Shown: positions 835-46,562, counted from the stretch's first letter. The stretch is 48,144 nucleotides of DNA from Candidatus Veblenbacteria bacterium (GCA_037439965.1 JBBIVB010000003.1:1-48144); one strand, 5' to 3'. Made by a program: numbers and translations. Notes: generated by a model from the letters alone, not told the origin.

Positions 835-900
835 TTTTTTAAAGTATTTTGTTAGTTTTTATTTGTGTTTACTTTACTGCAAAAATCAAATAAAAGTCAA
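835..900 (-). promoter_or_regulatory. Sigma70-type promoter plus boxA-like motif for the pgsA-like gene
   Basis: Minus strand: TTGACT (900-895), N18, TAAAGT (876-871), then ATACTTTAAAAAA (847-835). Confidence 0.45.
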
Positions 901-2001
901 GCTAGGTTAGGAAAGCTCGTGACTAATCATGGTCTGGTAGATATTCCATTTTTTTTACCCATAGCTACCCGCGGTGTTGTTAAAGGTTTGGCGGTTAATG
1001 ATTTAAAGAGTTTAGGAGCGCAAATAATTTTATCCAACACTTATCATTTATGGCTTAAACCGGGATTGGAGTTAGTTAAAAAAGTAGGCGATTTACATAA
1101 GTTTATCGGATGGTCGGGTCCAATTTTAACTGACTCGGGTGGTTTTCAAGTTTTTAGTTTAAGTAAAATTAGGCGATTGAATGATCGAGGTGTAGAATTT
1201 TTAGTGCCGGAGAGCGGTGAAAAAAGATTTTTAACACCCAAACTTGCTTTGGAAATCCAGGCTGTTTTAGGTTCTGATATTGCTATGGTTTTAGATGAAT
1301 GCGTTGGTTATCCAGTACCGGAAGCTCGAGCAGCAGAAGCAGTGGAACGTACTAGTTTATGGGCGCAAGAGCAAATAGATTATTGGCCTAAAGTAAAAAC
1401 CTTAGGGCAGCAATTATTTGGCATTGTTCAGGGTTCGGTTTTTCCAAAACTCCGCGAGCAAAGTGCTAAAACTATTACTAAGCTTCCTTTTGATGGAATA
1501 GCTTTAGGTGGTTTGGCAGTAGGCGAAACACCAGAACAAATGTATCAAGTTTTAGATTATACCGTGCCGTTGTTGCCGGAGCATAAGTTAAGATATTTAA
1601 TGGGTGTTGGCTATCCAGAAAATATTGTGCAAGCAGTGAAAAGGGGAATAGATTGTTTTGATTGTGTGATACCAACCCGAGAAGCTAGACACGGGCGTCT
1701 TTATATTTGGCCTGAAATACGCTTTCAAGATGAAGATAAGTTTTTAAGCTTATTATCACAAGCTGATTTTTATCAAACCATTAATATTGAGCGGGCGCCA
1801 TGGCAGAATGATTTAGCTGTGCTTAACACTGGCTGTAATTGTTTGGCTTGTGCAGAATTAAAAACTACGCGGGCATATTTGCATCATTTATTTGATGTTA
1901 AAGAGGCGCTGGCTGAAAGATTAGCCACCATTCATAATTTGCATTTTTATTTAGAGTTAATGAAGCTGATCAGACGGGCCATCGAGCGAGATATTTTATA
2001 G
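865..2001 (+). CDS. tgt: tRNA-guanine(34) transglycosylase
   Basis: NTYHL, LTDSGGFQVFSL, LDEC, GIVQG, GGLAVGE, YLMGVG and FDCVIPTR motifs; Zn site CNCLAC...HN. GTG start. Confidence 0.97.
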   Translation: MFTLLQKSNKSQARLGKLVTNHGLVDIPFFLPIATRGVVKGLAVNDLKSLGAQIILSNTYHLWLKPGLELVKKVGDLHKFIGWSGPILTDSGGFQVFSLSKIRRLNDRGVEFLVPESGEKRFLTPKLALEIQAVLGSDIAMVLDECVGYPVPEARAAEAVERTSLWAQEQIDYWPKVKTLGQQLFGIVQGSVFPKLREQSAKTITKLPFDGIALGGLAVGETPEQMYQVLDYTVPLLPEHKLRYLMGVGYPENIVQAVKRGIDCFDCVIPTREARHGRLYIWPEIRFQDEDKFLSLLSQADFYQTINIERAPWQNDLAVLNTGCNCLACAELKTTRAYLHHLFDVKEALAERLATIHNLHFYLELMKLIRRAIERDIL

Positions 2002-2049
2002 ATAGATAAATATGGATTTTATTGGGGCGAGGAATTATAATAATAGTGT

Positions 2050-2400
2050 ATGAACTTCGTTCGTGAAGAAGCTACTAAAATTACCCTTAGTGTCATAGGT
2101 GATATTTGGCGTTTTCCAGGCTGGTGGTATACCCGTGGCACTAAAGAAGTAGGTAGTTGGTGTTGGCAGCAAATTCATGATACCTGGGAAAGATTAGCCA
2201 TTGCTTTATTTGTTAAATACTTTTTTAAACCGATGTATGGTGATTATACTTTGTCAGGCAGAATCATCAGTATTTTTATGAGGTTTGTTTTGATAATAGT
2301 AAAGTTAATAAGATTAGTTTTTTGGTTTTTATTTTATTCACTAATTTTTATTTTATGGCTAGTAATTTTGCCATTATCCTTAATTTTAATTTTTGTTTGA
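2050..2400 (+). CDS. Small hypothetical membrane protein upstream of the Clp ATPase
   Basis: 116 aa, Trp/aromatic-rich (FPGWWYTRG, FFKPMYGDY) with a long hydrophobic C-terminus. Confidence 0.8.
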   Translation: MNFVREEATKITLSVIGDIWRFPGWWYTRGTKEVGSWCWQQIHDTWERLAIALFVKYFFKPMYGDYTLSGRIISIFMRFVLIIVKLIRLVFWFLFYSLIFILWLVILPLSLILIFV

Positions 2401-2457
2401 AATGTCCAGTAATATAACTTTCAGTATATTTTATTGCATCTGCATCTTAAGAGATCA

Positions 2458-2514
2458 GTCATGCTGAATTTATTTCAGCATCTAGTAAAGATCCTGAATT
2501 GAGTTCAGGATGAC
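2458..2514. repeat. REP/RPE-like double-hairpin palindromic element (GTCAT...ATGAC)
   Basis: GTCATGCTGAATTTATTTCAGCATCT-agtaa-AGATCCTGAATTGAGTTCAGGATGAC: two inverted, related units, each of which is itself a hairpin. Confidence 0.8.
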
Positions 2515-2565
2515 GAAATAATAAAAATATCTTGTATTTTGAATTTTACATTTTAAATTATTTTT

Positions 2566-5115
2566 ATGCCAAGGTTGCTATGGACAATTAAACCAACTTT
2601 AAGCTCCTTATTAGTCAGGAGACTAAGGGAGAATTGGGAACGTTATATTGATGGCACAGCTTTATTTATTAGTGTGATATTATTTGTTTTGTTTTTATGG
2701 CGATTGCATGTTTATTTAGAACATTGGTCAGATATTTTAGATGCTATTTTTCCTCCTTCACCAGTAGCCAAATTTTGTTGGTTGGCAGTATTATTCATTT
2801 GTTATACTATTTATCGTTTTAACCGTTTAAACCAAGAAAGGTCCTATTTAAAAGGTGATGAGGCTATTATAAAAATTGAAGAACATTTAAGTCCTGAGAT
2901 GTGGCTATTGTTAGAGCAGGCTTGGCGTTATGCTACTAAATTTAGGCATGGAGAAGTGTCAGAAATCCATTTATTAGCCGCTTCTCTTAAAACCAGCACT
3001 GGGCAAGCAATTTTTTCTCGCTTAGGAGTTAATCCTGATAAATTATTTTCTACTCTTTCTAACGCTTTAGCCAAAGTAACTAAAGGTAGGCCAGCTCAAT
3101 TATCAAGTTCATGTCAAGCGACTTTAATTAAAACAGGTGAATTAGCTTTAGCTAGGCGCAGTCATTTAGTTGAGGTAGGAGAATTAATTATGGCTATAGC
3201 AAATGGCGAATCCTTAGCGCGCCAAGTATTAGATGAGCTAGCCATAGAAACTAAAATGATTGCCAATATCACCACTTGGTTTGCTTTACGCCGCCGTTTA
3301 AAAAAAGAATTAGCCCGCAGAGCTCGCAGAGCTTCTTGGCGCCCCAAGTACGCCTTGGATCGAGCTTATTTAGCAGTAGCTACACCCTTGCTAGATCAAA
3401 TCAGTCGCGATTTAACATATTTAGCAGCACGCGGTTATCTAAAGCCCTGTGTGGGTAGAGATAAAGAAATGCAGGAAATTTTCCGTCTGATTGAAGGTGG
3501 TAAATCTAGTGTGGTATTAGTGGGCGAGCCAGGAATTGGTAAAACCGCCATTATTGAAGGCATTGCTCAAGCCATGGTGTCTGAAGAAGTGCCAGAGCCT
3601 TTACAAGATAAAAAATTATTAGCTTTATCAGTACCAGCATTAGTTGGCAGTGGTGAAGTGGAAAGCAGAGTACTGCAAGTAATGAATGAGATAGCGCGAG
3701 CTGGTAATATCATTTTATTTATTGATGATATACACAATTTAGTTGGTCATTTAGCTAATGGCAAAGAGAGTTTAGATGTTGCTGATATGATAGCTAATTT
3801 TATCTCTGAGTCCAAAATTATTACTCTAGCTACTACTACACCAACTGATTGGCTAGATTATTTGGATAAAACTTTTTTAGGTAATGTTTTGGATAAAGTA
3901 AAAATAGAAGAACCAGAAGATGATATAGCTATACAAATATTAGAAGCTACTATACCCTTATTAGAATATCAGCATCATATTTATTTTTCTTATGACTCAT
4001 TAGCTAAGGCGGTAGAATTATCGCGGCGTTATCTGCCAGATAAATTTTTACCTGAAAAAGCCATTAAGTTATGTGAGGAAGCAGCAGTATTTATTAGACA
4101 GCATAAAGGAGAGAAGGCTACTATTACAGCCGAAGATATATCTCAATTAGTATCTAGTAAAGTAAATGTGCCAATAACCCAAGTAACTGCCATTGAGGGC
4201 GAGCGATTATTAAACTTGGAAAATATTTTACATCAGAGGATTATTGGCCAAGATGAGGCAGTTAAAATGGTATCGGCGGCTTTGCGACGGGCGCGCGTAG
4301 AATTGAAAGCTAGGAATGGTCCGATTGCTACTTTTTTGTTTTTAGGCCCTACTGGCGTTGGCAAAACAGAGCTAGCTAAGACCGTGGCGGCTGAATATTT
4401 CAATGGCGAAGATAAGATGATTAGGTTAGATATGTCTGAATTTCAAACTACCGATAGTATCTATCGTTTAATTGGCGCGCCGCCAGGTTTAGGTAAAGAG
4501 CAAGGATTTTTAACAGAGGCGGTAAGACAAAAGCCGTACTCATTGATTTTATTAGATGAATTTGAAAAATCACATCCAGATATTCTTAATGTCTTTTTGC
4601 AGTTATTTGATGATGGCCGTTTAACTGATTCTACTGGCAGGACAGTTGATTTTACCAATACTATTATTATTGCCACCTCTAATGCTGGTACACAATTTAT
4701 TCAAGATAGTTTAAAATCAGGAGTACCTATAGCTGATATTAGACGAATGCTTCTGGAAGGGGAGTTAAAAAATTATTTTAAACCAGAATTAATTAACCGT
4801 TTTGACGGAGTAATTGTTTTTGCGCCACTTGGTTTGTCAGAGGTAATAGCTATCACTAAGTTATTATTAACTAAATTAGCTCGTACCTTGCAAGCCAAAG
4901 GTATTACTTTAAAAGCTAGCGAAGCAGCGGTAGAAGAATTAGCTAGGGAAGGTTTTGATCCTTTATATGGTGCTAGGCCTTTGCAGCGTACTATTCAGGA
5001 TAAAGTTGATAATGCTTTGGCTAATTATTTATTAACCGGCAAGCTTGGTCGTCGTGATATAGTGGTGTTAGAGTCAGGTGGTGTAATTAAAGTAGAGAAA
5101 GCTACTAAACTTTAA
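2566..5115 (+). CDS. Clp/Hsp100 family AAA+ ATPase (ClpA/C-like) with N-terminal transmembrane segments
   Basis: Two hydrophobic helices, a Clp N-domain, D1 Walker [10 protein letters not shown]2 [20 protein letters not shown] and GARPLQR. Confidence 0.93.
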
Positions 5116-5119
5116 ATTT

Positions 5120-5680
5120 ATGGAACTAAGAATTGAGCGTCCACAATCTGGATATCTAGGGCAAACCACTGGAGCATTAGCTGGCTCCATTTTAGGTTTG
5201 GTTATTTTAGTAGGTGGTTTGATTTTTATTATTAAAACTGGCGCTAAAAATAATTCCAAGCCAGCTAATAATTTAGCAGAGGAGATTGTTTGGGAAGATA
5301 ATTTAAATCTTGATAAATTTAATGCTAATAATATTAAACAGACTCCTTTGTCAGATAAATTACAAATAGAAATAATTAGGTCGGGTCATGGTGATAGAGA
5401 AAGTAAATCAGGGGATAAATTAGAAGTTAATTATACAGGATGGTTGACTGATGGTACTAAATTTGATTCAAGCTATGATCGTGGAACCCCTTTTGTTTTT
5501 ACATTAGGCGCTGGAGAGGTAATTAAAGGCTGGGATCAAGGTTTACGAGGTATGGTAGTAGGAGAAAAAAGAAAACTAATTATTCCAGCCAACTTGGCTT
5601 ACGGAAAGCAGGGAAATGGAGAAATTATTCCTTCCAATGCTATTTTAATTTTTGAAGTAGAGTTGCTTAAGATAGAATAG
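5120..5680 (+). CDS. FKBP-type peptidyl-prolyl cis-trans isomerase, N-terminally membrane anchored
   Basis: [34 protein letters not shown] and LIFEVEL; one N-terminal TM helix. Confidence 0.95.
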
Positions 5681-5684
5681 TCAT

Positions 5685-6187
5685 ATGACCAAAGGTCGTT
5701 TAGTAATCTACTTAATGATTACCTTGGTAGTTTTGTTATTGGTATTTTATGTTTGGTTAGTTTATGAAGTTCAAGCGCCGCATAAAAATTTAGTCAAAGT
5801 GCAAGTGTATTTTGGCAATAGTATTAATGATCCAGAAGTTTTAGATTGTAAAAAGAATTTTTTAGTAGAGCGATGGGTAGTAAAACAGTCTAATTTAGCA
5901 GATTTAGCCAAAGTGGCTATAAATGAATTATTAGCAGGGCCAACCATAAAAGAAAAAGCAGCTGGATTTTTACTAGTATTAATCCGGGAGTAAAATTACA
6001 AAAATTAGACATAGTGGGTGAAGAAGTAAGTGTTGATTTTGATGAAACATTAGAAAAAGCAGTAGGTGGTTCTTGCCGAGTAGCAGCTATCAGGTCACAA
6101 ATTACTAAAACTTTATTACAATTTCCTAGTTTTAAAAAAGTAATAATTTCCATTAATGGACGCACTGAAGATATTTTACAACCATAA
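5685..6187 (+). pseudogene. GerMN domain surface protein, frameshifted at the T5 run 5967-5971
   Basis: The 5' ORF has ELLAGPT..EK..GF. Adding one T restores FTSINPGVKL...VDFDETLEKAVGGSCRVAAIRSQITKTLLQF...ISINGRTEDILQP*, a GerMN-type C-terminus ending at TAA 6185-6187. Confidence 0.85.
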
Positions 6188-6320
6188 TAAAGTCTGTGCG
6201 TTTAATGCCATCACCAACTACCGCGGGGACTTAGAGAGTATTTAGCAATTTATTTTTTAAACATTCTGATTTTTTAACCTAAAACCAAGAACTATTGGAT
6301 AGGAACTAATAACTTAATTT

Positions 6321-6998
6321 ATGACCAAAGGTTTTTCTATTATTTTTATTGTGATTTGTTTTTTGTTTTTTGTAGTAGTGACGGTGGTTAGTTTTTTATT
6401 GCTTCGGGAAAATTATTATGAAAGTTCTTTGGCGACGGTTATTAATCTTGAATTGAACAAAAGAGATGAGTTATTTAATTTAATTCAAATAACCACTCCA
6501 AAAGCGGATCAAGTTATAGAAAGTCCGTTGGTGATAAAAGGTAAAGCTAGAGGAAGTTGGTATTTTGAAGCATCTTTTCCAGTAAAACTTTTAGATAATC
6601 AGGGTAAGATATTAGCACAAGGCATAGCTCAGGCACAGAGTGATTGGATGACAGAAAATTTTGTGCCTTTCGTAGCTACCTTAACTTTTACTAAACCTAC
6701 TAGTACAGCAGGTACTTTGATTTTACAAAAAGATAACCCCTCAGGCTTGCCAGAACATGATGTGCAAATTAGTATCCCGTTATTATTTAAACAAGATAGT
6801 CAAGTAAATACTAAACCGTGTATTATAACCGGTTGCAGTAAACAGCTTTGTGCTGAGGATGAGGTTGTTACCACCTGTGAATTTAAACCTGAATATGTTT
6901 GTTATACCAAAGCAGTTTGTGAGCGTCAGGCAGATGGTAAATGCAGTTGGACCAAAACAATTGATTTAGAGGTTTGTTTGAATGAGTTTAAAGAATAA
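6321..6998 (+). CDS. Membrane-anchored protein with Gmad2 Ig-like domain and C-terminal cysteine-cluster domain
   Basis: N-terminal TM; SPLVIKGKARGSWYFEASFPVKL...DWMT..FVPF...KDNPSG (Gmad2); CIITGCSKQLC...TTCEF...CY..A.C....G.C.W. Confidence 0.85.
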   Translation: MTKGFSIIFIVICFLFFVVVTVVSFLLLRENYYESSLATVINLELNKRDELFNLIQITTPKADQVIESPLVIKGKARGSWYFEASFPVKLLDNQGKILAQGIAQAQSDWMTENFVPFVATLTFTKPTSTAGTLILQKDNPSGLPEHDVQISIPLLFKQDSQVNTKPCIITGCSKQLCAEDEVVTTCEFKPEYVCYTKAVCERQADGKCSWTKTIDLEVCLNEFKE

Positions 6999-15679: not shown

Positions 15680-16519
15680 ATGTTGATTGATACTCATTGT
15701 CATTTGAATTTTCGGGCGTTTAAAGATGATGTAGATAAAGTAATAAAACACGCAGATGAGGCAGGGGTGTTTCGCATTATTAATGTTGGCAGTCAATGGG
15801 AAACAAGCAAGCGGGCGGTAAAGTTAGCACAAACTTATGGTACTTTATATGCTGCCATTGGGCTTCATCCAATACATCTCTATGAACAGGAAGTAGATGA
15901 GGAAGAAACACATTTTAAAACCAGGACTGAGATTTTTGATATTAAAAAATATACTGAATTAGCTCATGGTGCTAAAGATAAAGTAGTAGCTGTGGGGGAG
16001 TGTGGTTTGGATTATCATCGTTTTCCTGACAAGGTTGACCAAACTGAAGTTAAGACTAGACAACAAGAATTATTTAAGCAGCATATTAAGTTGGCCAGTG
16101 AAGTGGGTTTACCAATCATTATTCATTGTCGCGAAGCTTATGATGATATTTTTAAAATTTTAGAAACATCGATTAGTGAAGGTTTATTATCCAAGCGTGG
16201 TGTTAGCCATTGTTTTTTAGGAACGAAAGCGCAGGCTAAGAAACTATTAGATTTAGGGTTTTTATTATCATTTACTGGTATTATTACTTTTAAGAACGTC
16301 AAGTCTGAATTATTAGAAGTAGTAAAACAAACACCTTTAGAGCGAATAATGATAGAAACTGATGCTCCTTATTTAGCACCTCAAGCTTATCGGGGAATGC
16401 TTAATGAGCCGGCTTATGTGGTAGAAGTTGCCAAAAAAATCGCCGAGTTAAAAAATATAGATTTTAAGGAAGTAGCCAAAATTACCACCCAGAATGCTAT
16501 AGATTTATTTAATCTATAA
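15680..16519 (+). CDS. tatD: TatD family hydrolase/nuclease
   Basis: IDTHCHL, GLHP, VGECGLDY, IIHCR, HCF and IETDAPYL. Confidence 0.95.
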   Translation: MLIDTHCHLNFRAFKDDVDKVIKHADEAGVFRIINVGSQWETSKRAVKLAQTYGTLYAAIGLHPIHLYEQEVDEEETHFKTRTEIFDIKKYTELAHGAKDKVVAVGECGLDYHRFPDKVDQTEVKTRQQELFKQHIKLASEVGLPIIIHCREAYDDIFKILETSISEGLLSKRGVSHCFLGTKAQAKKLLDLGFLLSFTGIITFKNVKSELLEVVKQTPLERIMIETDAPYLAPQAYRGMLNEPAYVVEVAKKIAELKNIDFKEVAKITTQNAIDLFNL

Positions 16520-16547
16520 AGACCAAAATATAATATTATTTATTTTA

Positions 16548-16573
16548 AGGAACAATTTGCGTGAATTGTTTCT
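16548..16573 (+). terminator. Possible terminator after tatD
   Basis: GGAACAATT-tgcgtg-AATTGTTTC stem with a T-rich tail. Confidence 0.4.
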
Positions 16574-16592
16574 AGATTTTATTTTGTAACTA

Positions 16593-16654
16593 TTGACAAG
16601 TAGGTTATTTTTATAATAATATGGAATGCTATAAAAAATTTGGTTCTTTAAAAA
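16593..16654 (+). promoter_or_regulatory. Sigma70 promoter plus boxA-like motif
   Basis: TTGACA (16593-16598), N18, TAATAT; GTTCTTTAAAAA at 16643-16654. Confidence 0.6.
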
Positions 16655-16675
16655 TCAATCAAGAATAGGTGCTAT

Positions 16676-17464
16676 ATGAACGATATAAGTGGTCTTGATC
16701 TAGGTCCGTGTTTACAATGGTATACTGTTAATGAAAAAAGGATTCAATTTGTACTTTCACCTGTATTTAAATCAAAATCTCCAATTGATATTCAAACTAA
16801 AAATATTTCTGATCTGCCGATTACTAAAGAAATTCTAGGCGGTGCATGGCAGCTTTATCCAGAATCAGCCAGACAAAGATCAATTTTGCGATTGATTATT
16901 GGAGGCTCTAAAAAATGGTTTCATAAAAGTTCAAGCCCAAATATTATAACTACTACCTATAATATAGGTAAGGCTTTATCACCAACCGCTATTGTTCCCG
17001 GTAGAACCGACTATATTTGGGAACCTGATAATAAACAGGCAAGAATATATCTTTATGAAATGGATGTTAAGTCAAGTATTGCAACTATTGTTCTAATTCA
17101 GACATTTTTGCATGAAATAGCTCATACCTTGTTAGTTTCAGCCTATTACTTACGTAATTATAGATTGTGTATGCCAGACGAAAAGGATATCGCAGGCATA
17201 AGCTTTTTTCAAAAATTTTTAAAAGTAGCGAGTAAATATTCACCAATCTCACATTATGCTAGCTTTTACCCTCTCCAATGTTTATCTTTAAAAGACACAA
17301 AGAGATATTATATAAATGTCAGTGAGCATATTTGTGAGAGTGTGGCAGCTTATTTATTAGGCTTCACCTTTTGTTTAGAGGAAGATAAGTGCTGGACCCC
17401 CTTTAAGGGTCGAGCTGACCTCTATGATTTGATTGCTGACTTCCTTGAAGCACGGTGCAAATAA
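16676..17464 (+). CDS. Hypothetical zincin-like metallopeptidase
   Basis: HExxH (FLHEIAH) with downstream SHYA...SEHICESVAAY; no obvious signal peptide. Confidence 0.65.
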   Translation: MNDISGLDLGPCLQWYTVNEKRIQFVLSPVFKSKSPIDIQTKNISDLPITKEILGGAWQLYPESARQRSILRLIIGGSKKWFHKSSSPNIITTTYNIGKALSPTAIVPGRTDYIWEPDNKQARIYLYEMDVKSSIATIVLIQTFLHEIAHTLLVSAYYLRNYRLCMPDEKDIAGISFFQKFLKVASKYSPISHYASFYPLQCLSLKDTKRYYINVSEHICESVAAYLLGFTFCLEEDKCWTPFKGRADLYDLIADFLEARCK

Positions 17465-17478
17465 AATAGTATATTTTT

Positions 17479-17510
17479 AAGGTTTGGATAATTATTTCCA
17501 AACCTTTTTT
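17479..17510 (+). terminator. Intrinsic terminator
   Basis: AAGGTTTGGA-taattatt-TCCAAACCTT followed by a T run. Confidence 0.8.
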
Positions 17511-17529
17511 ATTTTGTTATCATTAGAAT

Positions 17530-18573
17530 ATGAGTTTGGAGTTTATTGTTTTATTACTGATAGTTTTAGGCGGGTTTATCGTCTTATTTTTATTACTAAA
17601 ATCGCGTTTTTCTAAAGGTTCGCTAGTTGATCAAAACAGCTTGCTATTATTGCAAAATCAGCTTAATGAAATTACCAGAACTTTGGATAATAAATTAGGG
17701 GAATCTACTAAAGTTATACAACAGCAATTTGGTGAGTCGGCTAAGATTATCCGCGATGTTACTGAGCGTTTAACTAAGTTAGATGAAACTAATCGGCAAG
17801 TGGTTAACTTTGCTGACCAATTACAAAATTTACAAGATATTTTAAAAAATCCCAAGCAACGAGGAATTTTGGGTGAATATTATTTAGAAACTTTACTTAA
17901 AAATGTTTTACCAACAGGTAGTTACCAAATGCAGTATGAATTTCGCGATGGAACAGTTGTGGATGCGGTCGTTTTTGTTAAAGATAGGATTATCCCTATA
18001 GATTCTAAATTTTCTTTGGAAAATTATAATCGTCTGGTCGAAGAACGCGATGCGGCAGAACGCGAAAGATTAGAAAAAGCTTTTAAAGCTGATTTGAAAA
18101 ATCGCATTGACGAAACAGCTAAGTATGTAAAGCCAGGTGAAAAAACTATGGACTTTGCTTTTATGTTTATTCCCCACGAAGCAATTTATTATGATTTGCT
18201 AGTGGCGCAAGTTGGTGCAGTAAAAGTTAATACTCGCGATTTGATTGAATACGCTTTTAAAGAAAAACATGTGATTATTGTTTCGCCAACTTCCTTTTTA
18301 GCTTATTTGCAAACTGTGCTGCAGGGATTAAAAGCTTTACAAATTGAAGAATCAGCTAAAGAAATTAGGAAAAATGTGGAAGCGTTAGGCAGACATTTAT
18401 CATCTTATGATGAATATATGCGTAAACTTGGTAATAATCTTGGTACCACTGTGAATATGTATAATTCAGCTTACAAAGAGTTTGCTAAAGTAGATAAAGA
18501 TGTGATGAAAATTTCAGGCAAAGCTATTGAAATTGAACCATTAAGTTTAGATAAACCAAAAAATGAAGAATAA
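17530..18573 (+). CDS. rmuC: DNA recombination protein RmuC
   Basis: N-terminal TM and coiled coil; NPKQRG.LGE..LE, IPIDSKF, AFMFIP.E and VSPT. Confidence 0.93.
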   Translation: MSLEFIVLLLIVLGGFIVLFLLLKSRFSKGSLVDQNSLLLLQNQLNEITRTLDNKLGESTKVIQQQFGESAKIIRDVTERLTKLDETNRQVVNFADQLQNLQDILKNPKQRGILGEYYLETLLKNVLPTGSYQMQYEFRDGTVVDAVVFVKDRIIPIDSKFSLENYNRLVEERDAAERERLEKAFKADLKNRIDETAKYVKPGEKTMDFAFMFIPHEAIYYDLLVAQVGAVKVNTRDLIEYAFKEKHVIIVSPTSFLAYLQTVLQGLKALQIEESAKEIRKNVEALGRHLSSYDEYMRKLGNNLGTTVNMYNSAYKEFAKVDKDVMKISGKAIEIEPLSLDKPKNEE

Positions 18574-18938: not shown

Positions 18939-18967
18939 TTGACATATCTTAAATAACAAGTTATAAT
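18939..18967 (+). promoter_or_regulatory. Consensus sigma70 promoter of the atp operon
   Basis: TTGACA-N17-TATAAT, exact consensus. Confidence 0.85.
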
Positions 18968-25935: not shown

Positions 25936-25992
25936 TTGACATTTTTTGATTGTTCATCTATTATGAATTATTAAAAATGTCGTTCTTTATAC
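25936..25992 (+). promoter_or_regulatory. Sigma70 promoter plus boxA-like motif
   Basis: TTGACA-N17-TATTAT (25936-25964); GTTCTTTATAC at 25982-25992. Confidence 0.65.
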
Positions 25993-26016: not shown

Positions 26017-26451
26017 ATGTCTCATAATTGTGAAAGTTTGGTTTTACGCTGTATGGATTGGCGTTTGTGGTCAGGATTGGAGGATTGGTTTACTAGTTCG
26101 GGTATGGCACAAGGCGGGTTTGACCTCGTATCAGTTGCTGGAGCTGTCAAAAGCTTAACATCTCCCAGTGGCGAAGCAGAAAAGGAGTTTATACTTAAGC
26201 ATATTAAAATTTCTCGCGATCTGCATCACATTAAGCGTGTGATTATTATCAATCACACTGATTGCGGTGGCTATGGTGGTAGCCAAAAGTTTTCTGATCA
26301 GCAAGCAGAACTAGAATTTCATAGAAATGAATTAAACCAAGCAGTTGCTATTATTTCAGAACGTTTTCCTGAAATTACTATAGAGAAATATCTTGCTTTG
26401 TTAAAAGAGCAATCTGGTAAATGGCAGGTTACTGTAGAAAAAGTTTCCTAA
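26017..26451 (+). CDS. Beta-class carbonic anhydrase-like protein
   Basis: Zn ligands CMDWR and HTDCG; VAGA motif. Confidence 0.8.
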   Translation: MSHNCESLVLRCMDWRLWSGLEDWFTSSGMAQGGFDLVSVAGAVKSLTSPSGEAEKEFILKHIKISRDLHHIKRVIIINHTDCGGYGGSQKFSDQQAELEFHRNELNQAVAIISERFPEITIEKYLALLKEQSGKWQVTVEKVS

Positions 26452-26470
26452 ATTTTAATCAAAAATAAAG

Positions 26471-26504
26471 ATGCCGGTAATTTTCCTTATCGGCATTATT
26501 TTTT
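26471..26504 (+). terminator. Intrinsic terminator
   Basis: ATGCCGGTAA-ttttcc-TTATCGGCAT followed by a T run. Confidence 0.7.
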
Positions 26505-36670: not shown

Positions 36671-37216
36671 ATGCCTAGGCAACAATTACAACAAGGTCGT
36701 CGATGGTATGCCATTCATACCTACTCTGGTTATGAAGAAAATGTAGCCCGTAATTTAAAGCAGCGTATTGAAACTATGGATATGGGTGATAAGATTTTTA
36801 ATATTTTAATTCCCACCGAGAAAAAAATTCGCATCAAAAATGGCAAACGTAAAGTAATAGAAGAAAAAATTTTTCCAGGCTACGTGCTGGTAGAAATGAT
36901 TGTAACTGATGATTCTTGGTATGTGGTGCGTAATACACCTAACGTCACTGGATTTATTGGCAGCGGTACCACCCCAACGCCAGTATCCGAAGAGGAAATG
37001 AAGTCTTTGCAAAAAAGAATGGGAATCGAAGAGCCAACTTATCAGGTTGATGTTACTCTTGGTACGCCAGTAAAAATTATCGATGGTCCATTTAAGGATT
37101 TTGATGGAAAAATTTCCGAAGTAGATCCTACTCGCGGCAAAGTTAAAGTTTTGGTTTCTATGTTTGGTAGAGAGACACCAGTGGAGCTTGATTTTTTACA
37201 AATCCAAAAGATATAA
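36671..37216 (+). CDS. nusG: Transcription termination/antitermination factor NusG
   Basis: WYAIHTYSGYE, FPGYVLV, KOW motif and FGRETPVEL. Confidence 0.98.
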   Translation: MPRQQLQQGRRWYAIHTYSGYEENVARNLKQRIETMDMGDKIFNILIPTEKKIRIKNGKRKVIEEKIFPGYVLVEMIVTDDSWYVVRNTPNVTGFIGSGTTPTPVSEEEMKSLQKRMGIEEPTYQVDVTLGTPVKIIDGPFKDFDGKISEVDPTRGKVKVLVSMFGRETPVELDFLQIQKI

Positions 37217-37252
37217 TTTTGCATTTTGATTTTTAAATTTTAAATTTTTCAT

Positions 37253-40440: not shown

Positions 40441-41355
40441 ATGCAACAGTATTTAAGTTTATTGCAAGAAGTTTTAGAGCGAGGTGAGAAGCGTCAGGAT
40501 AGAACCGGCATTGGTACCATGTCAATCTTTGGTATCCAGAGAAAATTTGATTTACGCGAAGGTTTTCCTTTAGTCACTACCAAAAAAGTTAAAATTGAAA
40601 ATATTATTATAGAACTGTTATGGTTTTTAAAAGGCGATACTAATATTAAATATTTAGTAGATAGAAATGTTAATATTTGGAACGAGTGGCCATTTCAAGA
40701 TTATTTAAAGGCTAATAATTTAGAGAAGGATTATCCGATTTATTCTGAAGGGTGGCGTAATAAGATGAAAGAATTTATTGAACAGATTAAAAATGATGAT
40801 AATTTTGCTAAAGAGTGGGGAGAATTAGGGCCGGTTTATGGTAAACAATGGCGTAGATGGGAAGGAAAAGATGGTAAGTTTTATGACCAAATTCAATGGG
40901 TAATTAATGAAATAAAAACAAATCCTAACTCAAGGCGTATTATAGTAAACGCTTGGAATGTAGCTGATGTTATGTCACATAAAAAATCCACTCCGCCTTT
41001 ATGTCATACCATGTTTCAGTTCTATGTAATTAATAATAGACTAGATTGCCAGCTTTATCAGCGGAGTGCTGATTTAGCTTTGGGCGTACCTTATAATATA
41101 GCAAGTTATAGCGCTTTAATGATGATAATAGCTCAGGAATGCGGTTTAACACCGGGTATTTTTACACATACCTTTGGCGATGCACATATTTATTTAAATC
41201 ATATCGAAGGCGTTAAAGAACAATTAACTAGGAAACCCTTTCATTTGCCAAAATTAATTATTAGTAGAAAACCAATGGGTGAGTTGACAATTGATGATTT
41301 TAAGTTGGAAAATTATCAGTGTCATCCTTTTATTAAATTTGAAATTGCGGTTTAA
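40441..41355 (+). CDS. thyA: Thymidylate synthase
   Basis: DRTGIGT, ELLWFLKG, LGPVYG.QWR, PPLCH and QRSAD..LGVPYN. ATG 40441 (MQQYL) preferred over TTG 40420. Confidence 0.97.
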   Translation: MQQYLSLLQEVLERGEKRQDRTGIGTMSIFGIQRKFDLREGFPLVTTKKVKIENIIIELLWFLKGDTNIKYLVDRNVNIWNEWPFQDYLKANNLEKDYPIYSEGWRNKMKEFIEQIKNDDNFAKEWGELGPVYGKQWRRWEGKDGKFYDQIQWVINEIKTNPNSRRIIVNAWNVADVMSHKKSTPPLCHTMFQFYVINNRLDCQLYQRSADLALGVPYNIASYSALMMIIAQECGLTPGIFTHTFGDAHIYLNHIEGVKEQLTRKPFHLPKLIISRKPMGELTIDDFKLENYQCHPFIKFEIAV

Positions 41356-41359
41356 TTTT

Positions 41360-41887
41360 ATGAATTTTTCAGTAATTGCAGCAATTGATAAAAATAGGGG
41401 TTTAGGTAAAGCAGGTAAACTAGCTTGGAATTTATCGGGTGATATGAAGCATTTTAAGTCAGTTACTTGCGAAGTTTCTAAAGCCGGCGCAATGAATGCC
41501 GTGATCATGGGTAGAACCACCTGGGAATCTTTGCCAGAAAAATATCGACCATTACCTAATAGGATAAATGTGATACTTACTAGAAATCGTGATTTTAAAG
41601 TTCCTCAGGGAGTTATTTTAGCCACTTCACTTGATGAAGCGTTGGATATATTATCAGCACTCGATAGTGTAGTGAATCAAATCTTTGTGATAGGCGGATC
41701 TTCGGTATATGCCCAAGCAGTAATACACCCATCTTGTAATAAGATTTATTTAACCGAAATTAATAAAGTTTTTGATTGCGATGTTTATTTTCCTATGTTG
41801 CCAAATGGTTTTATTAAAAAAGAGGAATCAAAAACAGTAACCAAAGATGGTATTGATTATAAATTTGTAATTTACGAACGCACATGA
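41360..41887 (+). CDS. folA: Dihydrofolate reductase
   Basis: IAA, LAW.L.GDM.HF, IMGRTTWESLP, RPLPNR, IGG and CDVYFP. Start at ATG 41360. Confidence 0.96.
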   Translation: MNFSVIAAIDKNRGLGKAGKLAWNLSGDMKHFKSVTCEVSKAGAMNAVIMGRTTWESLPEKYRPLPNRINVILTRNRDFKVPQGVILATSLDEALDILSALDSVVNQIFVIGGSSVYAQAVIHPSCNKIYLTEINKVFDCDVYFPMLPNGFIKKEESKTVTKDGIDYKFVIYERT

Positions 41888-42576
41888 AGCGAGGTTTATT
41901 TATAGCTATTGAAGGAACAGATGGTTCGGGTAAAGCTACTCAATTTAAATTACTAACTAACACTTTAAAACGCGTAGGTTATAAATTTGCTACGGTTGAT
42001 TTTCCACAGTATGGCAAACCATCTGCCTGGTTTGTAGAACAATATTTAAATGGTAAATATGGTAAGTCGCAAGATATTTCACCTCAAATTGCTTCCATAT
42101 TTTATGCTCTAGATAGATTTCAGGTTGCTTCTCAAGTTGAGCAATGGCTTAAACAAGGTAAAATAGTAGTGGCTAACAGATATGTTTTATCTAATGCCGC
42201 TCATCAAGGTGGCAAAATTAAAAAATTATCTGAACGACGAAGGTACTGGCAGTGGCTATTTAATTTAGAATATAAATTATTAAGGGCCCCTAAGCCAGAT
42301 ATTAATATTTTATTGCATTTACCGGCCAAACAGGCACAGAGGTTGGTGTTAAAAAAAACTCCTCGACGGTACATTAAATTAGGAGCTAAACGTGATATTC
42401 ATGAACTAGATTTAAAACATCTGCAAGCAGCAGAAAAGGTTTATTTAGAATTAGCTAAGATTTACCATTTGCCAGTAATAGAATGTATACAAAAAGGAAG
42501 GCTATTGACACCTAAAGAAATTCATTATAAAGTGTGGAAAATAGTAGAAAGAAAATTGACTAAAATTGTTCACTAA
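41884..42576 (+). CDS. tmk: Thymidylate kinase
   Basis: FIAIEGTDGSGK.TQ, FP.Y, ALDR, NRY..SN.A.Q, PD and DIHE. Confidence 0.92.
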   Translation: MKRGLFIAIEGTDGSGKATQFKLLTNTLKRVGYKFATVDFPQYGKPSAWFVEQYLNGKYGKSQDISPQIASIFYALDRFQVASQVEQWLKQGKIVVANRYVLSNAAHQGGKIKKLSERRRYWQWLFNLEYKLLRAPKPDINILLHLPAKQAQRLVLKKTPRRYIKLGAKRDIHELDLKHLQAAEKVYLELAKIYHLPVIECIQKGRLLTPKEIHYKVWKIVERKLTKIVH

Positions 42577-42577
42577 A
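42505..42577 (+). promoter_or_regulatory. Promoter inside the tmk 3' end plus boxA-like motif for the 63-aa ORF
   Basis: TTGACA (42505-42510), N17, TAAAGT (42528-42533); GTTCACTAAA at 42568-42577. Confidence 0.45.
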
Positions 42578-42596
42578 TTAAAAGGAGTATAAAAGT

Positions 42597-42788
42597 ATGC
42601 TAGAACTTAGTACAGAATTGGTGCGAGAGTTAGTTACTGCACCTTGGCGTTTATTTTATGATTCATTATATATTAATGAATTGACTCAAATAAGTCAAGC
42701 AAAGAATTCGTTAATGCAGGCTGTGAATGAAACAGAGAATTTAAGGTTAAAGTGGAGGGAGGAAATAATAATGCCAAGAATAATCTAA
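42597..42788 (+). CDS. Small hypothetical protein (63 aa)
   Basis: AAGGAG SD, its own promoter and a downstream terminator; no recognisable domain. Confidence 0.6.
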   Translation: MLELSTELVRELVTAPWRLFYDSLYINELTQISQAKNSLMQAVNETENLRLKWREEIIMPRII

Positions 42789-42791
42789 AGT

Positions 42792-42832
42792 TAGCCCAGC
42801 TCGTTATTAAATAAATATGCTGGGCTATTTTT
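42792..42832 (+). terminator. Intrinsic terminator
   Basis: TAGCCCAGC...GCTGGGCTA stem followed by TTTTT. Confidence 0.65.
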
Positions 42833-42842
42833 ATGCTAAAAT

Positions 42843-44303
42843 ATGAATATGCCATTAGGATCAGTAATTGGTTTAGAAATACACGTGCAACTCAAAACAA
42901 AGTCAAAAATGTTTTGCGCCTGTGATAATACTGGTGAAATCAAACCGTCTAATACTACAGTTTGCCCAATATGTTTAGGGCATCCTGGTGTTTTACCAGT
43001 GGCTAATAAAGAAGCCATTAAGATGGCACTTAAAGTAGCACTAGCCTTAAATCTGCAGGTTAATTTACATTCTAAATTTGACCGCAAAAATTATTTCTAT
43101 CCAGATTTACCTAAAGGTTATCAAATTTCGCAATATGATGAGCCATTGGCACAGGAAGGTTTTTTAGAAATAGTTACTAAAGATGGGGTACGAAAAGTTG
43201 CTATTGAACGATTACATTTAGAGGAAGATACAGGAAAATTATTACATATTAAAAATAAATCTCTGGTAGATTTTAATCGCGCTGGCACGCCTTTAATAGA
43301 GATTGTTACTAAACCCCAGGCGATGACACCAAGTGAAGTTAAAGTTTTTTTACAGCAGCTGCGTACCATTATGCGCTATTTGGAAGTTTCCGAGGCTGAT
43401 ATGGAAAAAGGACATCTAAGGGTGGATGTTAATGTATCCTTGCGACCTAGAGGTGAAAGTAAGCTTTACCCTAAAGTAGAGCTTAAAAATTTAAATTCTT
43501 TCCGTTCTGTAGAGCGGGGATTGGAATATGAAATAAAAAGGTTAACTGGATTATGGGAGCGGGGCGAATATCCAAAAAATAATTCTACCCGCGGCTGGAA
43601 TGATGCTAGGGGTATAAGCGAGGAGCAAAGAACAAAAGAGGAGGTTTCTGATTACCGTTATTTTCCGGAACCAGATTTGCAGCCACTCAATTTTACTAAA
43701 GAAGAAATTGAGGAGATTAAAAAGAGTTTACCAGAATTACCGCAAGATAAAATTAAACGTTTAACAAAACAATATGGATTGCTTGCTAGTGAGGCAAATA
43801 TTTTGGTTAGTGATTTGCCAGTGGTTGATTATTTTGAAAGTGTAGTTACAAAATTAATCAAACAAAATGAGGAAATAGAGAAAAAACAAGCGGTCAAATT
43901 AGTATTTAATTGGCTGGTTAACAAATTATTTCAGTTGTTTAATGAAAAAGGTATAACCATTATTAAACTCCCTTTTAATCAAGAGCAATTTGTTGATTTT
44001 TTATTGTTAGTAGCTTCAAGAAGAGTTAATTCTACTAATGCACAGATTTTATTAAAACACATGATGGAAACAGGACAAGATCCGCAAAGTATCTTAGATT
44101 CGGAAGATTTAAGCCAAAGCAGCAATATCAATTTGGAGGAAATTATTAATAAGATAATTGTTCAGTATCCCGAACAGTTGGCGCAGTATAAAGCAGGTAA
44201 AACTCCAGTGTTAAAATTTTTCCTTGGTGCTGTAATGCGAGAAACCAAAGGTAAGATTGATCCTATAGAAGCTGAAGAATTGCTTAAACAGAAGTTGTCA
44301 TAA
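42843..44303 (+). CDS. gatB: Asp/Glu-tRNA(Asn/Gln) amidotransferase subunit B
   Basis: IGLEIHVQL, FDRKNYFYPDLPKGYQISQ, HLEED, RAGTPLIEIVT and YRYFPEPDL. True start may be ATG 42849. Confidence 0.97.
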   Translation: MNMPLGSVIGLEIHVQLKTKSKMFCACDNTGEIKPSNTTVCPICLGHPGVLPVANKEAIKMALKVALALNLQVNLHSKFDRKNYFYPDLPKGYQISQYDEPLAQEGFLEIVTKDGVRKVAIERLHLEEDTGKLLHIKNKSLVDFNRAGTPLIEIVTKPQAMTPSEVKVFLQQLRTIMRYLEVSEADMEKGHLRVDVNVSLRPRGESKLYPKVELKNLNSFRSVERGLEYEIKRLTGLWERGEYPKNNSTRGWNDARGISEEQRTKEEVSDYRYFPEPDLQPLNFTKEEIEEIKKSLPELPQDKIKRLTKQYGLLASEANILVSDLPVVDYFESVVTKLIKQNEEIEKKQAVKLVFNWLVNKLFQLFNEKGITIIKLPFNQEQFVDFLLLVASRRVNSTNAQILLKHMMETGQDPQSILDSEDLSQSSNINLEEIINKIIVQYPEQLAQYKAGKTPVLKFFLGAVMRETKGKIDPIEAEELLKQKLS

Positions 44304-44340
44304 ATAATTTTTATTAATTGCTGCGCAATGTTCTAAATTA

Positions 44341-44394
44341 TTGACTTTTTTGTTATTGGAGTAAACTTATTTTACAGAAATTGTTTCTTTAAAA
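44341..44394 (+). promoter_or_regulatory. Promoter-like sequence plus boxA-like motif of a decayed gene
   Basis: TTGACT-N15-TAAACT (short spacer); GTTTCTTTAAAA at 44383-44394. Confidence 0.4.
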
Positions 44395-44419
44395 TTCAAT
44401 AGAAAGCGAGAGTGATATC

Positions 44420-44979
44420 ATGGAATTATTATGTTATATATATGAGGTAAAGAGAAAAAATATTACACAGTGGAAATTTATTAATGCTGATGGAATTTGT
44501 AAAAAGGTTAATATTTGTGATGATTGTTTTAAAAAATATACAAAGACCCGATAAAAATTATTGCGAGATTCATAAGGAGAATTTTGTTATTTTATATATT
44601 TTATAGATTTTACTTCTGCTTGCCGTGGCTGTATTGAGCAAGCCGTTAGAGCAGAAAAAGAAACAAATAGTGCTAGTGTATAGGAAGAATGGAAAAAAGT
44701 TAGCAAATTGACTACTAAAAAATATAAAGCGGAGTTCCTTAAATTGATAAGGGCCGCTACCTAAAATCGATTAGCAGAAGAATTATGTTGGCTTTGGCCA
44801 AGCATGTTAAAATGCAGCGTTATAATCTTTCTTCTAATCAGGTGATAAAGGAAGACTTAGAACAGCTTAAGATAAATAAATCTTTGGTAGTAACTATGCT
44901 GTCATCCTTAGATCCTAAGAAGCGTTATCTCCCCCCTAAGTTGATAAACTTAGGGGGTTTTTATAAATCTTTTAATTAA
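44420..44979 (+). pseudogene. Decayed Cys-rich hypothetical gene with several stops and frameshifts
   Basis: Successive protein-like fragments: MELLCYIY...ICDDCFKKY / NYCEIHKE / SACRGCIEQAVRAEKE..*EEWKK...* / MLALAKHVKMQRY...; flanked by a promoter and a terminator. Confidence 0.5.
44932..44962 (+). terminator. Intrinsic terminator overlapping the miaA stop
   Basis: CCCCCTAAGTT-gata-AACTTAGGGGG-TTTTT perfect 11-bp stem. Confidence 0.75.
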
Positions 44980-45921
44980 TTTTTCCGCTTGCTGGTAATT
45001 TTTAACCCAGTTAATTTGTGGCATTTTTTTGGACCAAGTTAGTTGCCGTTTAGCAAATTGACAGGTGTGTTGTTTAATTAATTCTATTGCTGCTTTTAAA
45101 TTTGTATCATTTTTTATAACCGATATTAATTCTTGATAACCAATGGTTTTAAGAGCAGGGGAGTGAGGATAATTTTTTAATAGCCAGCGTACCTCTTTTA
45201 ATAAACCTTTCTTTATCATTTGATCTACCCGTTTGTTGATTTGCGAATAAAGTCGTGGGCGAGGAGGATTAATTCCGATGATTAGATAATTAGAAAGAGG
45301 TTTTTTTTGTTGACTGCCAAAAAATGATTTATTGTTGGTTAAAATATATTCTAGGGCTCTAATTAATCGCCGGTAATTTTTTTTATCAATTTTTTTATAA
45401 GTTACGGTGTCTAATTTTTTAATTTTAGCGAGCAGTTCTTTGATTGATAATTTAGCCAATTTCTTCCTTAATTTAAGATTGGGTTTACCTGGTGGTAATT
45501 GATAACCCTCTACTATACTAGAAACATACAGTCCTGTGCCGCCTACTATAATTGGAAGCTGGAATTTAGAAGCTGAAAGTTTGGAAAGCTTTTTAAGTAG
45601 TTGGTATGTTTCTTTTTGAAATTGAGCAACGGAATATATTTGGTTAGGTTTTTTACAAGATATAAAAAAATGTGGAACTTTCTTAACAAAATAAATTTTT
45701 TTTCTACCAAAAATCTTTCGCCATTGATTATTAGCCATTTGCCAGTAGCCAGCCGGTTGATTTGTTCCAATAGGTAGTCCTTGATAAATCTGTCTTGAGT
45801 CGGCTGAAATTAACACGCCGTTGAATTTCTTAGCTAGTTTTAAAGCTAGCTCAGTTTTACCAGACGCTGTTGGGCCTACAATGGCGATTAAAGGATAGCC
45901 GTTGACTTTATGATGCATCAT
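44950..45921 (-). CDS. miaA: tRNA (adenosine37-N6)-dimethylallyltransferase
   Basis: GPTASGKT, SADSRQIY, VGGTGLY, RLIRALE, IGYQE and AKRQLTW. Confidence 0.97.
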   Translation of the reverse strand: MMHHKVNGYPLIAIVGPTASGKTELALKLAKKFNGVLISADSRQIYQGLPIGTNQPAGYWQMANNQWRKIFGRKKIYFVKKVPHFFISCKKPNQIYSVAQFQKETYQLLKKLSKLSASKFQLPIIVGGTGLYVSSIVEGYQLPPGKPNLKLRKKLAKLSIKELLAKIKKLDTVTYKKIDKKNYRRLIRALEYILTNNKSFFGSQQKKPLSNYLIIGINPPRPRLYSQINKRVDQMIKKGLLKEVRWLLKNYPHSPALKTIGYQELISVIKNDTNLKAAIELIKQHTCQFAKRQLTWSKKMPQINWVKNYQQAEKLIKRFIKTP

Positions 45922-45969
45922 TACTAGAATAAAATAAATAAAATAATTTAGAAAAAGAGTTCATTTAAA
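45902..45969 (+). promoter_or_regulatory. Promoter (antisense within the miaA 5' end) plus boxA-like motif
   Basis: TTGACT-N17-TAGAAT (45902-45930); GTTCATTTAAA at 45959-45969. Confidence 0.5.
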
Positions 45970-46006
45970 TAATAACAAAATATAGCTAAAAATAAAGGGT
46001 ATAAAT

Positions 46007-46414
46007 ATGCCTGATTTTAAGATTATAGTAGTTGATGGAGATCAAGTAGCGAGAGAGCTTTTATATAATGATTTGATTAACGCAGGTTATCATCATATAA
46101 AATTGTTTGGCAGTTTAGAGGATGTTTTGCGATTATTAAAGTTAAGGAAAAACAGCGTTGATTTGATTATTACCGAGATGAAATATAGTAAGACTCATAA
46201 ATTAGAAGTTATAGATTTATTATATTCCATCAGAAAACGAAAATTATACCGACCGAATTCTCAAAAATTAGTAAAAGTTTTAATACTTTCTACTTACGCC
46301 AACGAAGAAAATGTTAGTGTTTGCCTTGCAGCTGGTGCTGACGATTTTATGTCAAAGCCTTATCAAGTTTTATATTTATTAGATACAGTTAAAACGCTGT
46401 TATCAGAATCTTAG
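46007..46414 (+). CDS. Stand-alone receiver (CheY-like) domain protein, atypical (phosphoacceptor Asp replaced by Glu)
   Basis: KIIVVDGD, DLIITE, VLILST and AGADDFMSKP. Confidence 0.85.
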   Translation: MPDFKIIVVDGDQVARELLYNDLINAGYHHIKLFGSLEDVLRLLKLRKNSVDLIITEMKYSKTHKLEVIDLLYSIRKRKLYRPNSQKLVKVLILSTYANEENVSVCLAAGADDFMSKPYQVLYLLDTVKTLLSES

Positions 46415-46470
46415 AACATTATTTTTCTAATCTGCTGAATATTTAATTATCTGTTAGATTTTATTTATCT

Positions 46471-46499
46471 TTGACAAGGATATTATATAGTGATAATAT
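46471..46499 (+). promoter_or_regulatory. Sigma70 promoter
   Basis: TTGACA-N17-TAATAT; AAGGAG SD before ATG 46563. Confidence 0.65.
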
Positions 46500-46562
46500 A
46501 CTCTCTTAAAATTGCATATTAAAATTTACCATTTTTAAACCAGTTTACTAAGGAGAATAAAT

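Follow-up and report, generated by a model that had tools for sequence, protein, structure and literature searches.

A promoter-proximal boxA-like word recurs ahead of mostly Pfam-less genes across the bacterial family of a Candidatus Veblenbacteria genome

A short word resembling boxA, the leader signal of ribosomal RNA (rrn) genes, recurs in sense orientation close behind predicted promoters in the bacterial family of a Candidatus Veblenbacteria bacterium, and this promoter-proximal, sense-oriented word is a real feature of that family. The stretch analysed, here called the window, spans 48,144 nucleotides (nt; GCA_037439965.1 JBBIVB010000003.1:1-48144) and makes up a complete contig (C3) in a genome of 801 kb, 35 contigs and 35% G+C, rated 99% complete. 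The majority of its 51 larger open reading frames (ORFs) are housekeeping genes (tgt, clpB, the atp operon, pheST, gyrB, secE-nusG-rplKA, thyA-folA-tmk, gatB and miaA), interspersed with a handful of small genes that are accessory or of unknown kind. An earlier note on this DNA had proposed that seven such genes share an expression layout of a full sigma70 promoter, a boxA-like motif, a Shine-Dalgarno (SD)-like stretch, an orphan gene and a terminator. The seven are a pgsA-like gene, a zincin gene, a putative carbonic anhydrase (CA) gene, an ORF of 63 amino acids (aa), an ORF in the slot behind gatB and two genes termed receiver 1 and receiver 2. The observation is confirmed in part and its interpretation is likewise supported in part.

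The evidence that carries the finding comes from a set of 21 family genomes scanned with composite patterns of promoter and word. The pattern TTGACW-N16-18-TANNNT-N2-32-GTTCTTT gave 86 matches in 20 of the 21 genomes, against 7 for the reversed pattern and 11 for the reverse-complement word, whilst promoter-N5-35-CTTTAAAA gave 58 matches over the 21 genomes, against 7 with the word reversed and 2 with the whole pattern reversed. The excess over reversed and reverse-complement words is about eightfold, and the word downstream of a predicted promoter stands in sense 86 times against 11 antisense in the family and 8 times against 1 in the genome of the window (G000). By hand count, the three nucleotides preceding CTTTAAAA in the 58 matches are GTT at 18 sites (about 1 expected), ATA at 6, GAT at 4 and GCT at 2, and GATCTTTAAAA is found at 4 of the 58. 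The usual tail after GTTCTTT is AACAA; R-A-H-A follows at 45 of the 86 sites, where base composition would give about 4 (binomial), and AACA at 21, again counted by hand. The word GTTCTTTAT follows promoters three times in one relative (G011) and also in another (G018). A hand count of total lengths places 38 of the 86 matches at 45-48 nt, which puts the word 4-6 nt past the -10 element, where the RNA is predicted to begin; at the remaining sites, those of the window included, it is spread 8-35 nt downstream.

The likeness to the rrn boxA, which had been drawn from the E. coli element, is borne out by the family's own ribosomal leaders, as the best word, GTTCTTTAA, is the core of their 16S-leader boxA (7/7 leaders). 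In G000 the genes for 16S (contig 7) and 23S rRNA (contig 19) are not linked, and separate promoters serve them. Seven aligned family 16S leaders share the order promoter, AAC(C)TTTAAAAC, long hairpin and TG[CT]TCTTT[AG]A[TC]AAGTGATAGGAAAA. The boxA of these leaders, TG[CT]TCTTT[AG]A[TC]AAGTGA, is kept in all seven, five of which read GTTCTTT, and its core lies about 150 nt 3' of the 16S promoter, behind the hairpin. Among the window's sites, the zincin word shares the GTTCTTTAA core with this boxA and the CA site shares GTTCTTTA; four loose sites misfit. Two further elements of the 16S leaders are also constant, namely the long hairpin GAAAAAACAGTG...CTCTGTTTTTTC ahead of boxA (7/7) and AAC(C)TTTAAAAC, which stands about 20 nt past the -10 in 7/7 and may be a second leader word apart from boxA. 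Directly upstream of the G000 16S promoter lie a KhpA-type KH-domain gene and trmD, and a canonical GCTCTTTAACAATC is found on contig 7 near 5285 (minus strand), 95 nt before the KhpA-type gene and trmD.

The search for factors covered nusB, nusG and a SuhB-type gene. The gene nusB, for which the earlier note had suggested looking, is present in 20 of the 21 family genomes, nusG lies in the window (36671-37216) and an inositol-monophosphatase (SuhB-type) gene is present. The RNA-binding domain of Rho was found in none of the 21 genomes (0/21), by a search that was positive in 9 control genomes.

The genes behind the word tend to differ in kind from those behind other promoters. Motif loci were drawn from the promoter plus CTTTAAAA scan (30 loci) and from the GTTCTTT list (19 loci, chosen for canonical tails close to the -10 and irrespective of gene content). 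Behind 42 motif sites, the nearest ORF no shorter than 60 aa and no further off than 450 nt was taken; of all the loci, one has no ORF and some have more than one. Of these ORFs, 33/42 lack a Pfam family (9/42 have one at E <=1e-4), against 12/44 among the controls (Fisher p = 2e-6), which were first ORFs behind intergenic G000 promoters without the word, 50 being drawn at random from 84 and 44 analysed. Thirty-two of the 44 controls have a Pfam family, ribosomal proteins included. The motif-led genes are also SD-led more often than others in a genome where SD use is sparse: an SD-like tetramer is found at -20 to -4 in 164/802 G000 genes, against 131/802 at a control offset, and no G peak precedes G000 start codons, though the 16S 3' end is the usual CACCUCCUUUCU (CCUCC). 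Such tetramers precede 10/18 motif-led genes of G000, against 18/87 led by other promoters, and 24/42 of the family ORFs. The start context of G000 is A-rich at -5/-4 with T at -1 in 75% of 604 ATG starts, and several core genes carry AGGAACTAATAACT(A/T)AA(C/T)TT immediately 5' of the ATG (6321, 15143 and 24005). Core genes are mostly without an SD, but that they are leaderless is not demonstrated by the predicted leaders of atp and rplK, which are about 30 nt long. The layout of promoter, boxA-like word, SD and orphan gene thus survives as a statistical tendency of the family; within the window it stands up at three of the seven sites plus one variant.

In G000 taken alone, the tight core of the motif is real and small. 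The test used 166 intergenic promoter-like sites (TTGACA, 16-18 nt, TAnnnT, with at most 2 mismatches), the 60-nt stretches downstream of them, and the published consensus GYTCTTTAANA (gamma-proteobacteria, PMC5725501). With at most one mismatch, 8/166 stretches match, against 2.4+-1.4 in shuffles (reached in 0/200) and 1 antisense; with at most two, 31/166 against 23.8 (15/200 shuffles reach 31); with at most three, 102/166 against 100.1+-5.6, which is chance level. Enrichment over shuffled DNA, on which the earlier note had let its proposal hang, is therefore present for near-exact matches (8 vs 2.4) and absent for loose ones (102 vs 100.1). A regular expression spanning most of the variants first noted likewise gave 17/166 against 12.3+-3.3 in dinucleotide shuffles, with 14 antisense, whilst G[CT]TCTTT[AG]A occurs 18 times in intergenic G000 DNA, against 8.1+-2.8. 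When the window's contig was excluded, GTTCTTTAAAA with at most 2 mismatches was found in 16/158 stretches against 8.7+-3.0 (6/300 shuffles), and six other word variants were not significant. Among words of the same composition in promoter+60 stretches, boxA-like variants rank 1st to 3rd, and CTTTAAAA and GTTCTTTA rank first with counts of only 6 and 4; k-mer z-scores on the same stretches did not bring the motif up. Per-site shuffle p-values were set aside as circular, the consensus being the zincin site itself. Mismatches to GYTCTTTAANA number 0 at the zincin site, 1 at the gatB slot, 2 at CA and pgsA, 3 at receiver 1 and the 63-aa ORF, and 4 at receiver 2, so that five of the seven instances (2-4 mismatches) appear, on G000 alone, indistinguishable from chance.

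The features of the seven units in the window are as follows.

72-818, minus strand: CDP-alcohol phosphatidyltransferase (pgsA-like) gene
837..847, minus strand: pgsA word ATACTTTAAAA, 2 mismatches, judged chance or unproven
871..900 (-35 at 895-900, -10 at 871-876), minus strand: pgsA promoter TTGACT-18-TAAAGT, in the tgt ORF
16537..17527: zincin-unit insertion relative to a same-genus genome (G001), about 990 bp; in G001 tatD abuts rmuC
16593..16622, plus strand: zincin promoter TTGACA-18-TAATAT, sigma70-like, spacer 18
16643..16653, plus strand: zincin word GTTCTTTAAAA, perfect match to GYTCTTTAANA, 20 nt past the -10 and 22 nt before the ATG
16676..17464, plus strand: zincin gene, 262 aa, HEIAH (HExxH), no Pfam family
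17479..17516, plus strand: terminator-like hairpin and T-run 3' of the zincin gene
25936..25964, plus strand: CA promoter TTGACA-17-TATTAT, 3' of atpC, spacer 17
25982..25992, plus strand: CA word GTTCTTTATAC, boxA-like variant with 2 mismatches; reads GTTCTTTATAA in a genome of another genus (G005)
26017..26451, plus strand: CA gene, Pro_CA_2 (putative carbonic anhydrase), followed by a terminator-like hairpin at 26470-26497
42505..42533, plus strand: promoter-like TTGACA-17-TAAAGT of the 63-aa ORF, inside tmk, spacer 17
42568-42577, plus strand: word of the 63-aa ORF, GTTCACTAAA, 3 mismatches, judged chance
44341..44367, plus strand: gatB-slot promoter-like TTGACT-15-TAAACT, 3' of gatB; spacer outside the 16-18 range of the scans
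44383..44394, plus strand: gatB-slot word GTTTCTTTAAAA, one extra T relative to the canonical word; 1 mismatch at 44384-44394
44420..44554, plus strand: gatB-slot ORF, 44 aa, Cys-rich (earlier called a pseudogene), followed by a bidirectional terminator-like hairpin at 44932-44957
45902..45930, plus strand: receiver 1 promoter TTGACT-17-TAGAAT, its -35 within the miaA coding sequence
45944..45979, plus strand: receiver 1 leader block TAATTTAGAAAAAG-N-GTTCATTTAAATAATAACAAA, 36 nt, containing GTTCATTTAAA (45959-45969)
46007..46414, plus strand: receiver 1 gene, stand-alone receiver-domain protein (Response_reg)
46471..46499, plus strand: receiver 2 promoter TTGACA-17-TAATAT, spacer 17
46514-46524, plus strand: receiver 2 word GCATATTAAAA, 4 mismatches, unsupported, before a 149-aa ORF; promoter plausible

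All seven motif strings are present where they had been placed, and each is preceded by the TTGAC(A/T)...TAnnnT pair at matching coordinates. In a test for sigma70-type promoters 6/7 fit, with spacers of 16-18 nt and 10-11/12 matches, and 1/7 has a 15-nt spacer. The siting of several promoters inside neighbouring core genes also proved right, for pgsA (in tgt), the 63-aa ORF (in tmk) and the -35 of receiver 1 (in miaA). Promoter-like sites of at least 9/12 over the whole window are not above shuffles (77 vs 78.8, 79 vs 68.6 and 40 vs 36.7), and the case for these promoters consequently rests on position and quality (10-12/12, intergenic, in sense to the gene). Core units have full promoters too, the atp operon at 18939-18967 (12/12) and rplK at 37188-37217 (10/12), so that a full promoter alone is no mark of accessory genes. 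Terminators, which most units were said to have, were listed by the window hairpin scan after four of the seven (58-82 on the minus strand, 17479-17506, 26470-26497 and 44932-44957) and after neither the 63-aa ORF nor receivers 1 and 2. No RNA fold shared among the seven window leaders was found, and Rfam gave no match over the window at gathering scores. Pairing of the word with the SD region was considered and dropped, as the seven leaders show no consistent pairing.

Comparison with relatives separates these sites. Those of zincin, CA and the gatB slot belong to the boxA-like class, and that of receiver 1 is a conserved variant. The CA promoter and leader are 83% identical to their G005 counterpart over 113 nt, above the 70% of the adjoining atpC, with an unrelated 174-aa ORF behind them in G005; in G001 the promoter is missing from this position. 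A DNA search with the CA leader found it in G005 only, weaker matches proving spurious on inspection. The gatB-slot leader has a similar counterpart in G005, with the canonical GTTCTTTAAAAAC...ATAGAAAGG, before an unrelated 326-aa secreted protein. The receiver 1 block is nearly invariant in four genera (G000, G005, G008 and G011), is not a canonical boxA and overlaps the expected promoter region of the divergent miaA. Directly 3' of atpC in G001 (contig 7) there is a decayed CA-like gene with ATA for a start codon and a short frame.

The zincin unit is an insertion whose flanks (about 16515-16605 and 17455-17535) are 76% alike, each with a terminator-like hairpin and T-run. Each flank module consists of a terminator-like hairpin and TTTTATTTTGT, and the zincin promoter takes its -35 from the upstream copy. 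A zincin homologue was found in 1/60 relatives searched (G031), where no such leader precedes it, and a scan of a genome-contig collection with the single zincin protein found nothing. In G005, three different genes fill the tatD-rmuC slot, and TTGACA-17-TATTAT and GATCTTTAAAAAA stand ahead of one of them. The preference of the earlier note for local tuning over cassette insertion thus fails for zincin, given the ~990-bp insertion relative to G001; the same promoter-leader also drives unrelated ORFs in different genera. The G005 slot (contig 3, 45400-48200) encodes an ArsR-like regulator, a 240-aa secreted protein and a TonB-C-like protein, and is a hot spot for variable genes.

The three remaining sites, those of pgsA, the 63-aa ORF and receiver 2, look like ordinary promoters with chance look-alikes of the word. 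The pgsA site is not conserved at the matching place in G001 or G005, though ATAC, its prefix, ranks second in frequency among those ahead of CTTTAAAA in the family (6/58, hand count). Ahead of the 63-aa ORF's homologue in G005 there is neither a promoter nor the motif. This ORF (42597-42788) has a 47-aa G005 counterpart (3043-3186, minus strand) before gatB with a similar C-terminal ...MPR(I/M)(I/M), and, judging by this likeness, it is a conserved small protein, not an orphan.

Leaders of the relatives often add structure behind the word. Among 19 family loci inspected, about 11 have a long inverted repeat right after the 13-nt word, six have a common ...tcgtag...CCTGGGAGGGGAG... structured leader and four have neither type. 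The leaders folded, nine hairpin loci of relatives chosen for visible repeats and one on contig 28 of G000, have a 15-22-bp stem in 10/10 cases, with z from -2.4 to -8.0. These stems start 13-16 nt after the start of the word, and their sequences differ between loci whilst the word is kept. Rfam gave no match downstream of the 19 loci except unrelated tRNAs, and at 10 G000 loci it gave one T-box plus rRNA ends only. The T-box leader (G000 contig 15, 7355-7690, minus strand) scores 86 bits against a gathering score of 93 and starts 19 nt past GTTCTTTAAG. The CCTGGGAGGGGAG-type leader, for which there is no Rfam match, follows the boxA word and precedes small membrane proteins; in G000 it is found on contig 8 near 16319 and contig 15 near 13605 (both minus strand), and a copy divergent from nusB is situated about 420-455 nt away from it in G005 and in a further relative, G006.

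We rate it as slightly better than an even chance that the word acts in RNA as a boxA bound by NusB-S10, and so sets the output of SD-led orphan genes; the start sites, the binding of NusB-S10 and the effect on expression are what we infer. On this proposal, lineage-specific self-contained units would occupy variable slots between conserved genes, those of zincin, CA-like and the gatB slot carrying the family-wide element. The nascent 5' leader would most likely be bound by NusB-S10, with GUUCUUUAAAAA, GUUCUUUAACAA, GUUCUUUAAAAAU and GUUCUUUAACAAA as candidate words (predicted targets), and NusB-S10, aided by NusG, and probably by NusA and the SuhB-like protein, would bring RNA polymerase into an rrn-type modified state. 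The modified polymerase might then read through intrinsic terminator-like hairpins, or the modified state might limit translation initiation, as at E. coli suhB. Since the search turned up no Rho, Rho-dependent termination cannot be what is targeted, and the anti-Rho role known from E. coli is inapplicable. Leaders are conserved across genera with swapped cargo, as the CA and gatB-slot leaders are relative to G005.

Several points weigh against a NusB-S10-bound boxA or reduce the force of the evidence for it. Four of the seven sites first noted misfit the boxA class, and no stable hairpin stands beside the word in the zincin (z -0.5) and CA (z +0.85) leaders of the window. Many mRNA sites run on as ...AAAAA, the rrn boxA as ...AAYAAGTGA; given these tails, and the second rrn leader word AAC(C)TTTAAAAC, a separate element may account for part of the CTTTAAAA signal. 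A promoter-proximal element at the DNA level could likewise explain why the word favours the predicted start site, and all transcription start sites are predictions from consensus promoters. Among sequencing runs, none of RNA was listed as containing the region, and one of DNA, which may be the source sample, was. The enrichment within G000 is carried by a handful of sites, its gene call (818 genes) is a crude one of longest ORFs, and the Pfam control comes from this one genome with 6 of the 50 ORFs left out (one with X, five long). Kin genomes and paralogous leaders in the family counts are not independent, some sites being paralogous copies of one promoter-leader module (e.g. in G018 and G020), and the number of independent events is therefore overstated, although the direction and size of the family-wide effect are clear despite this.

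Three other explanations have to be set beside the Nus-dependent one. The word could act in DNA, as a promoter-proximal or initially transcribed element or as the operator of a global regulator of lineage-specific genes, and the 38/86 sites at 4-6 nt past the -10 have indeed the fixed position typical of promoter-linked elements, within a promoter-leader that is conserved entire as a block. The other sites, however, including those of the window, are spread 8-35 nt downstream, and the core also occurs about 150 nt 3' of the 16S promoter, behind a hairpin, where a boxA is expected; the word is moreover not palindromic, its orientation is strict (86 vs 11) and in the loci folded it is single-stranded beside the stem, all of which leaves a DNA element unlikely.

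A role in RNA that does not involve Nus factors, as a 5' stabiliser, an RNase processing signal or a ribosome/S1 landing site alongside the SD, would account for the tie between the motif and SD-led genes in an SD-poor genome. It would also suit the long hairpins that directly follow in 10/10 leaders folded (z -2.4 to -8.0, in chosen loci), long stems of such kind being typical RNase III substrates. Against it stand the identity of the word with the rrn boxA core, the want of complementarity between this U-rich word and the 16S 3' end and the lack of consistent SD pairing in the window leaders, and we hold it to be quite unlikely. That the word has no function, and reflects AT-rich leaders and the common descent of copied promoter-leader cassettes, is already disfavoured and in our estimate improbable. 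Loose matches at chance in G000, near-identical copies among several family sites and the unconserved pgsA site all agree with such an origin, but it does not explain why a word of 11-13 nt is kept whilst promoter spacers and hairpins differ in sequence, nor the 8-fold excess over reversed and reverse-complement words, nor conservation across genera despite replacement of the cargo ORF.

A wider and more tentative proposal is that expression in this family follows two regimes, which we regard as possible but doubtful: conserved genes would be expressed independently of an SD, and exchangeable lineage-specific genes from portable promoter-boxA(-hairpin)-SD modules that recruit NusB-S10. If so, accessory output would be tied to free S10 and hence to ribosome synthesis, and the modules would stay in place as the cargo ORF is swapped. 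As it stands, a boxA word heads dozens of mostly unknown genes in a family of ultra-small, SD-poor bacteria in which Rho was not found, and leaders with swapped cargo suggest how new genes gain expression in reduced genomes. If NusB-S10 does bind, Nus factors would regulate accessory genes as a class over a large, uncultured portion of bacterial diversity, and the word would be a cheap metagenome marker for such genes and their start sites. No literature linking boxA or NusB with Patescibacteria or the Candidate Phyla Radiation was found, as judged from listings.

Among known systems, the rrn leader antitermination signals (boxB hairpin, boxA and boxC; NusB, S10, NusA, NusG, SuhB and S4) offer the same boxA core, an adjacent hairpin and nusB, nusG and suhB-like genes. 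In the rrn leader, however, the hairpin precedes boxA and AAGTGA comes after it, whereas in the family mRNAs the hairpin, where present, follows boxA, and the window's own sites are without one. The lambda nut sites consist of a boxA followed by the boxB hairpin, and thus share the order of boxA then hairpin near a promoter. The family's stems, at 15-22 bp, greatly exceed that of lambda boxB in length; an N-like protein is not known in the family, no search having been aimed at one.

Outside the proteobacteria, B. subtilis NusB binds the rrn boxA-like AUGAUCUUUGAAA (PMC13753749), and that source has variants of the UCUUU(G/A)AAA type bound by NusB and reports that the rrn complex interferes with intrinsic termination. 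The B. subtilis element is known there only on rRNA leaders, unlike the mRNA sites of the family. A further parallel is the gamma-proteobacterial mRNA boxA: Baniulyte et al. 2017 (PMC5725501) describe regulation of suhB and of a gene for a ParE-like toxin through GYTCTTTAANA placed no more than 50 nt from the start codon, by translational repression in the case of suhB, and 407 putative sites precede protein-coding genes in 314 of 940 genomes. The two systems are alike in that the word stands in the 5' untranslated region, each genome has several putative sites, the genes concerned include an accessory one, and an SD is nearby. The suhB mechanism, as set out there, ends in Rho termination, whereas Rho was found here in 0/21 genomes. 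The family further differs from the gamma-proteobacterial case in its many sites per genome family-wide, in a word that often stands at the predicted 5' end, in the bias towards Pfam-less and SD-led genes, in the long hairpin after the word in the family loci folded, and in the reuse of one leader for different cargo.

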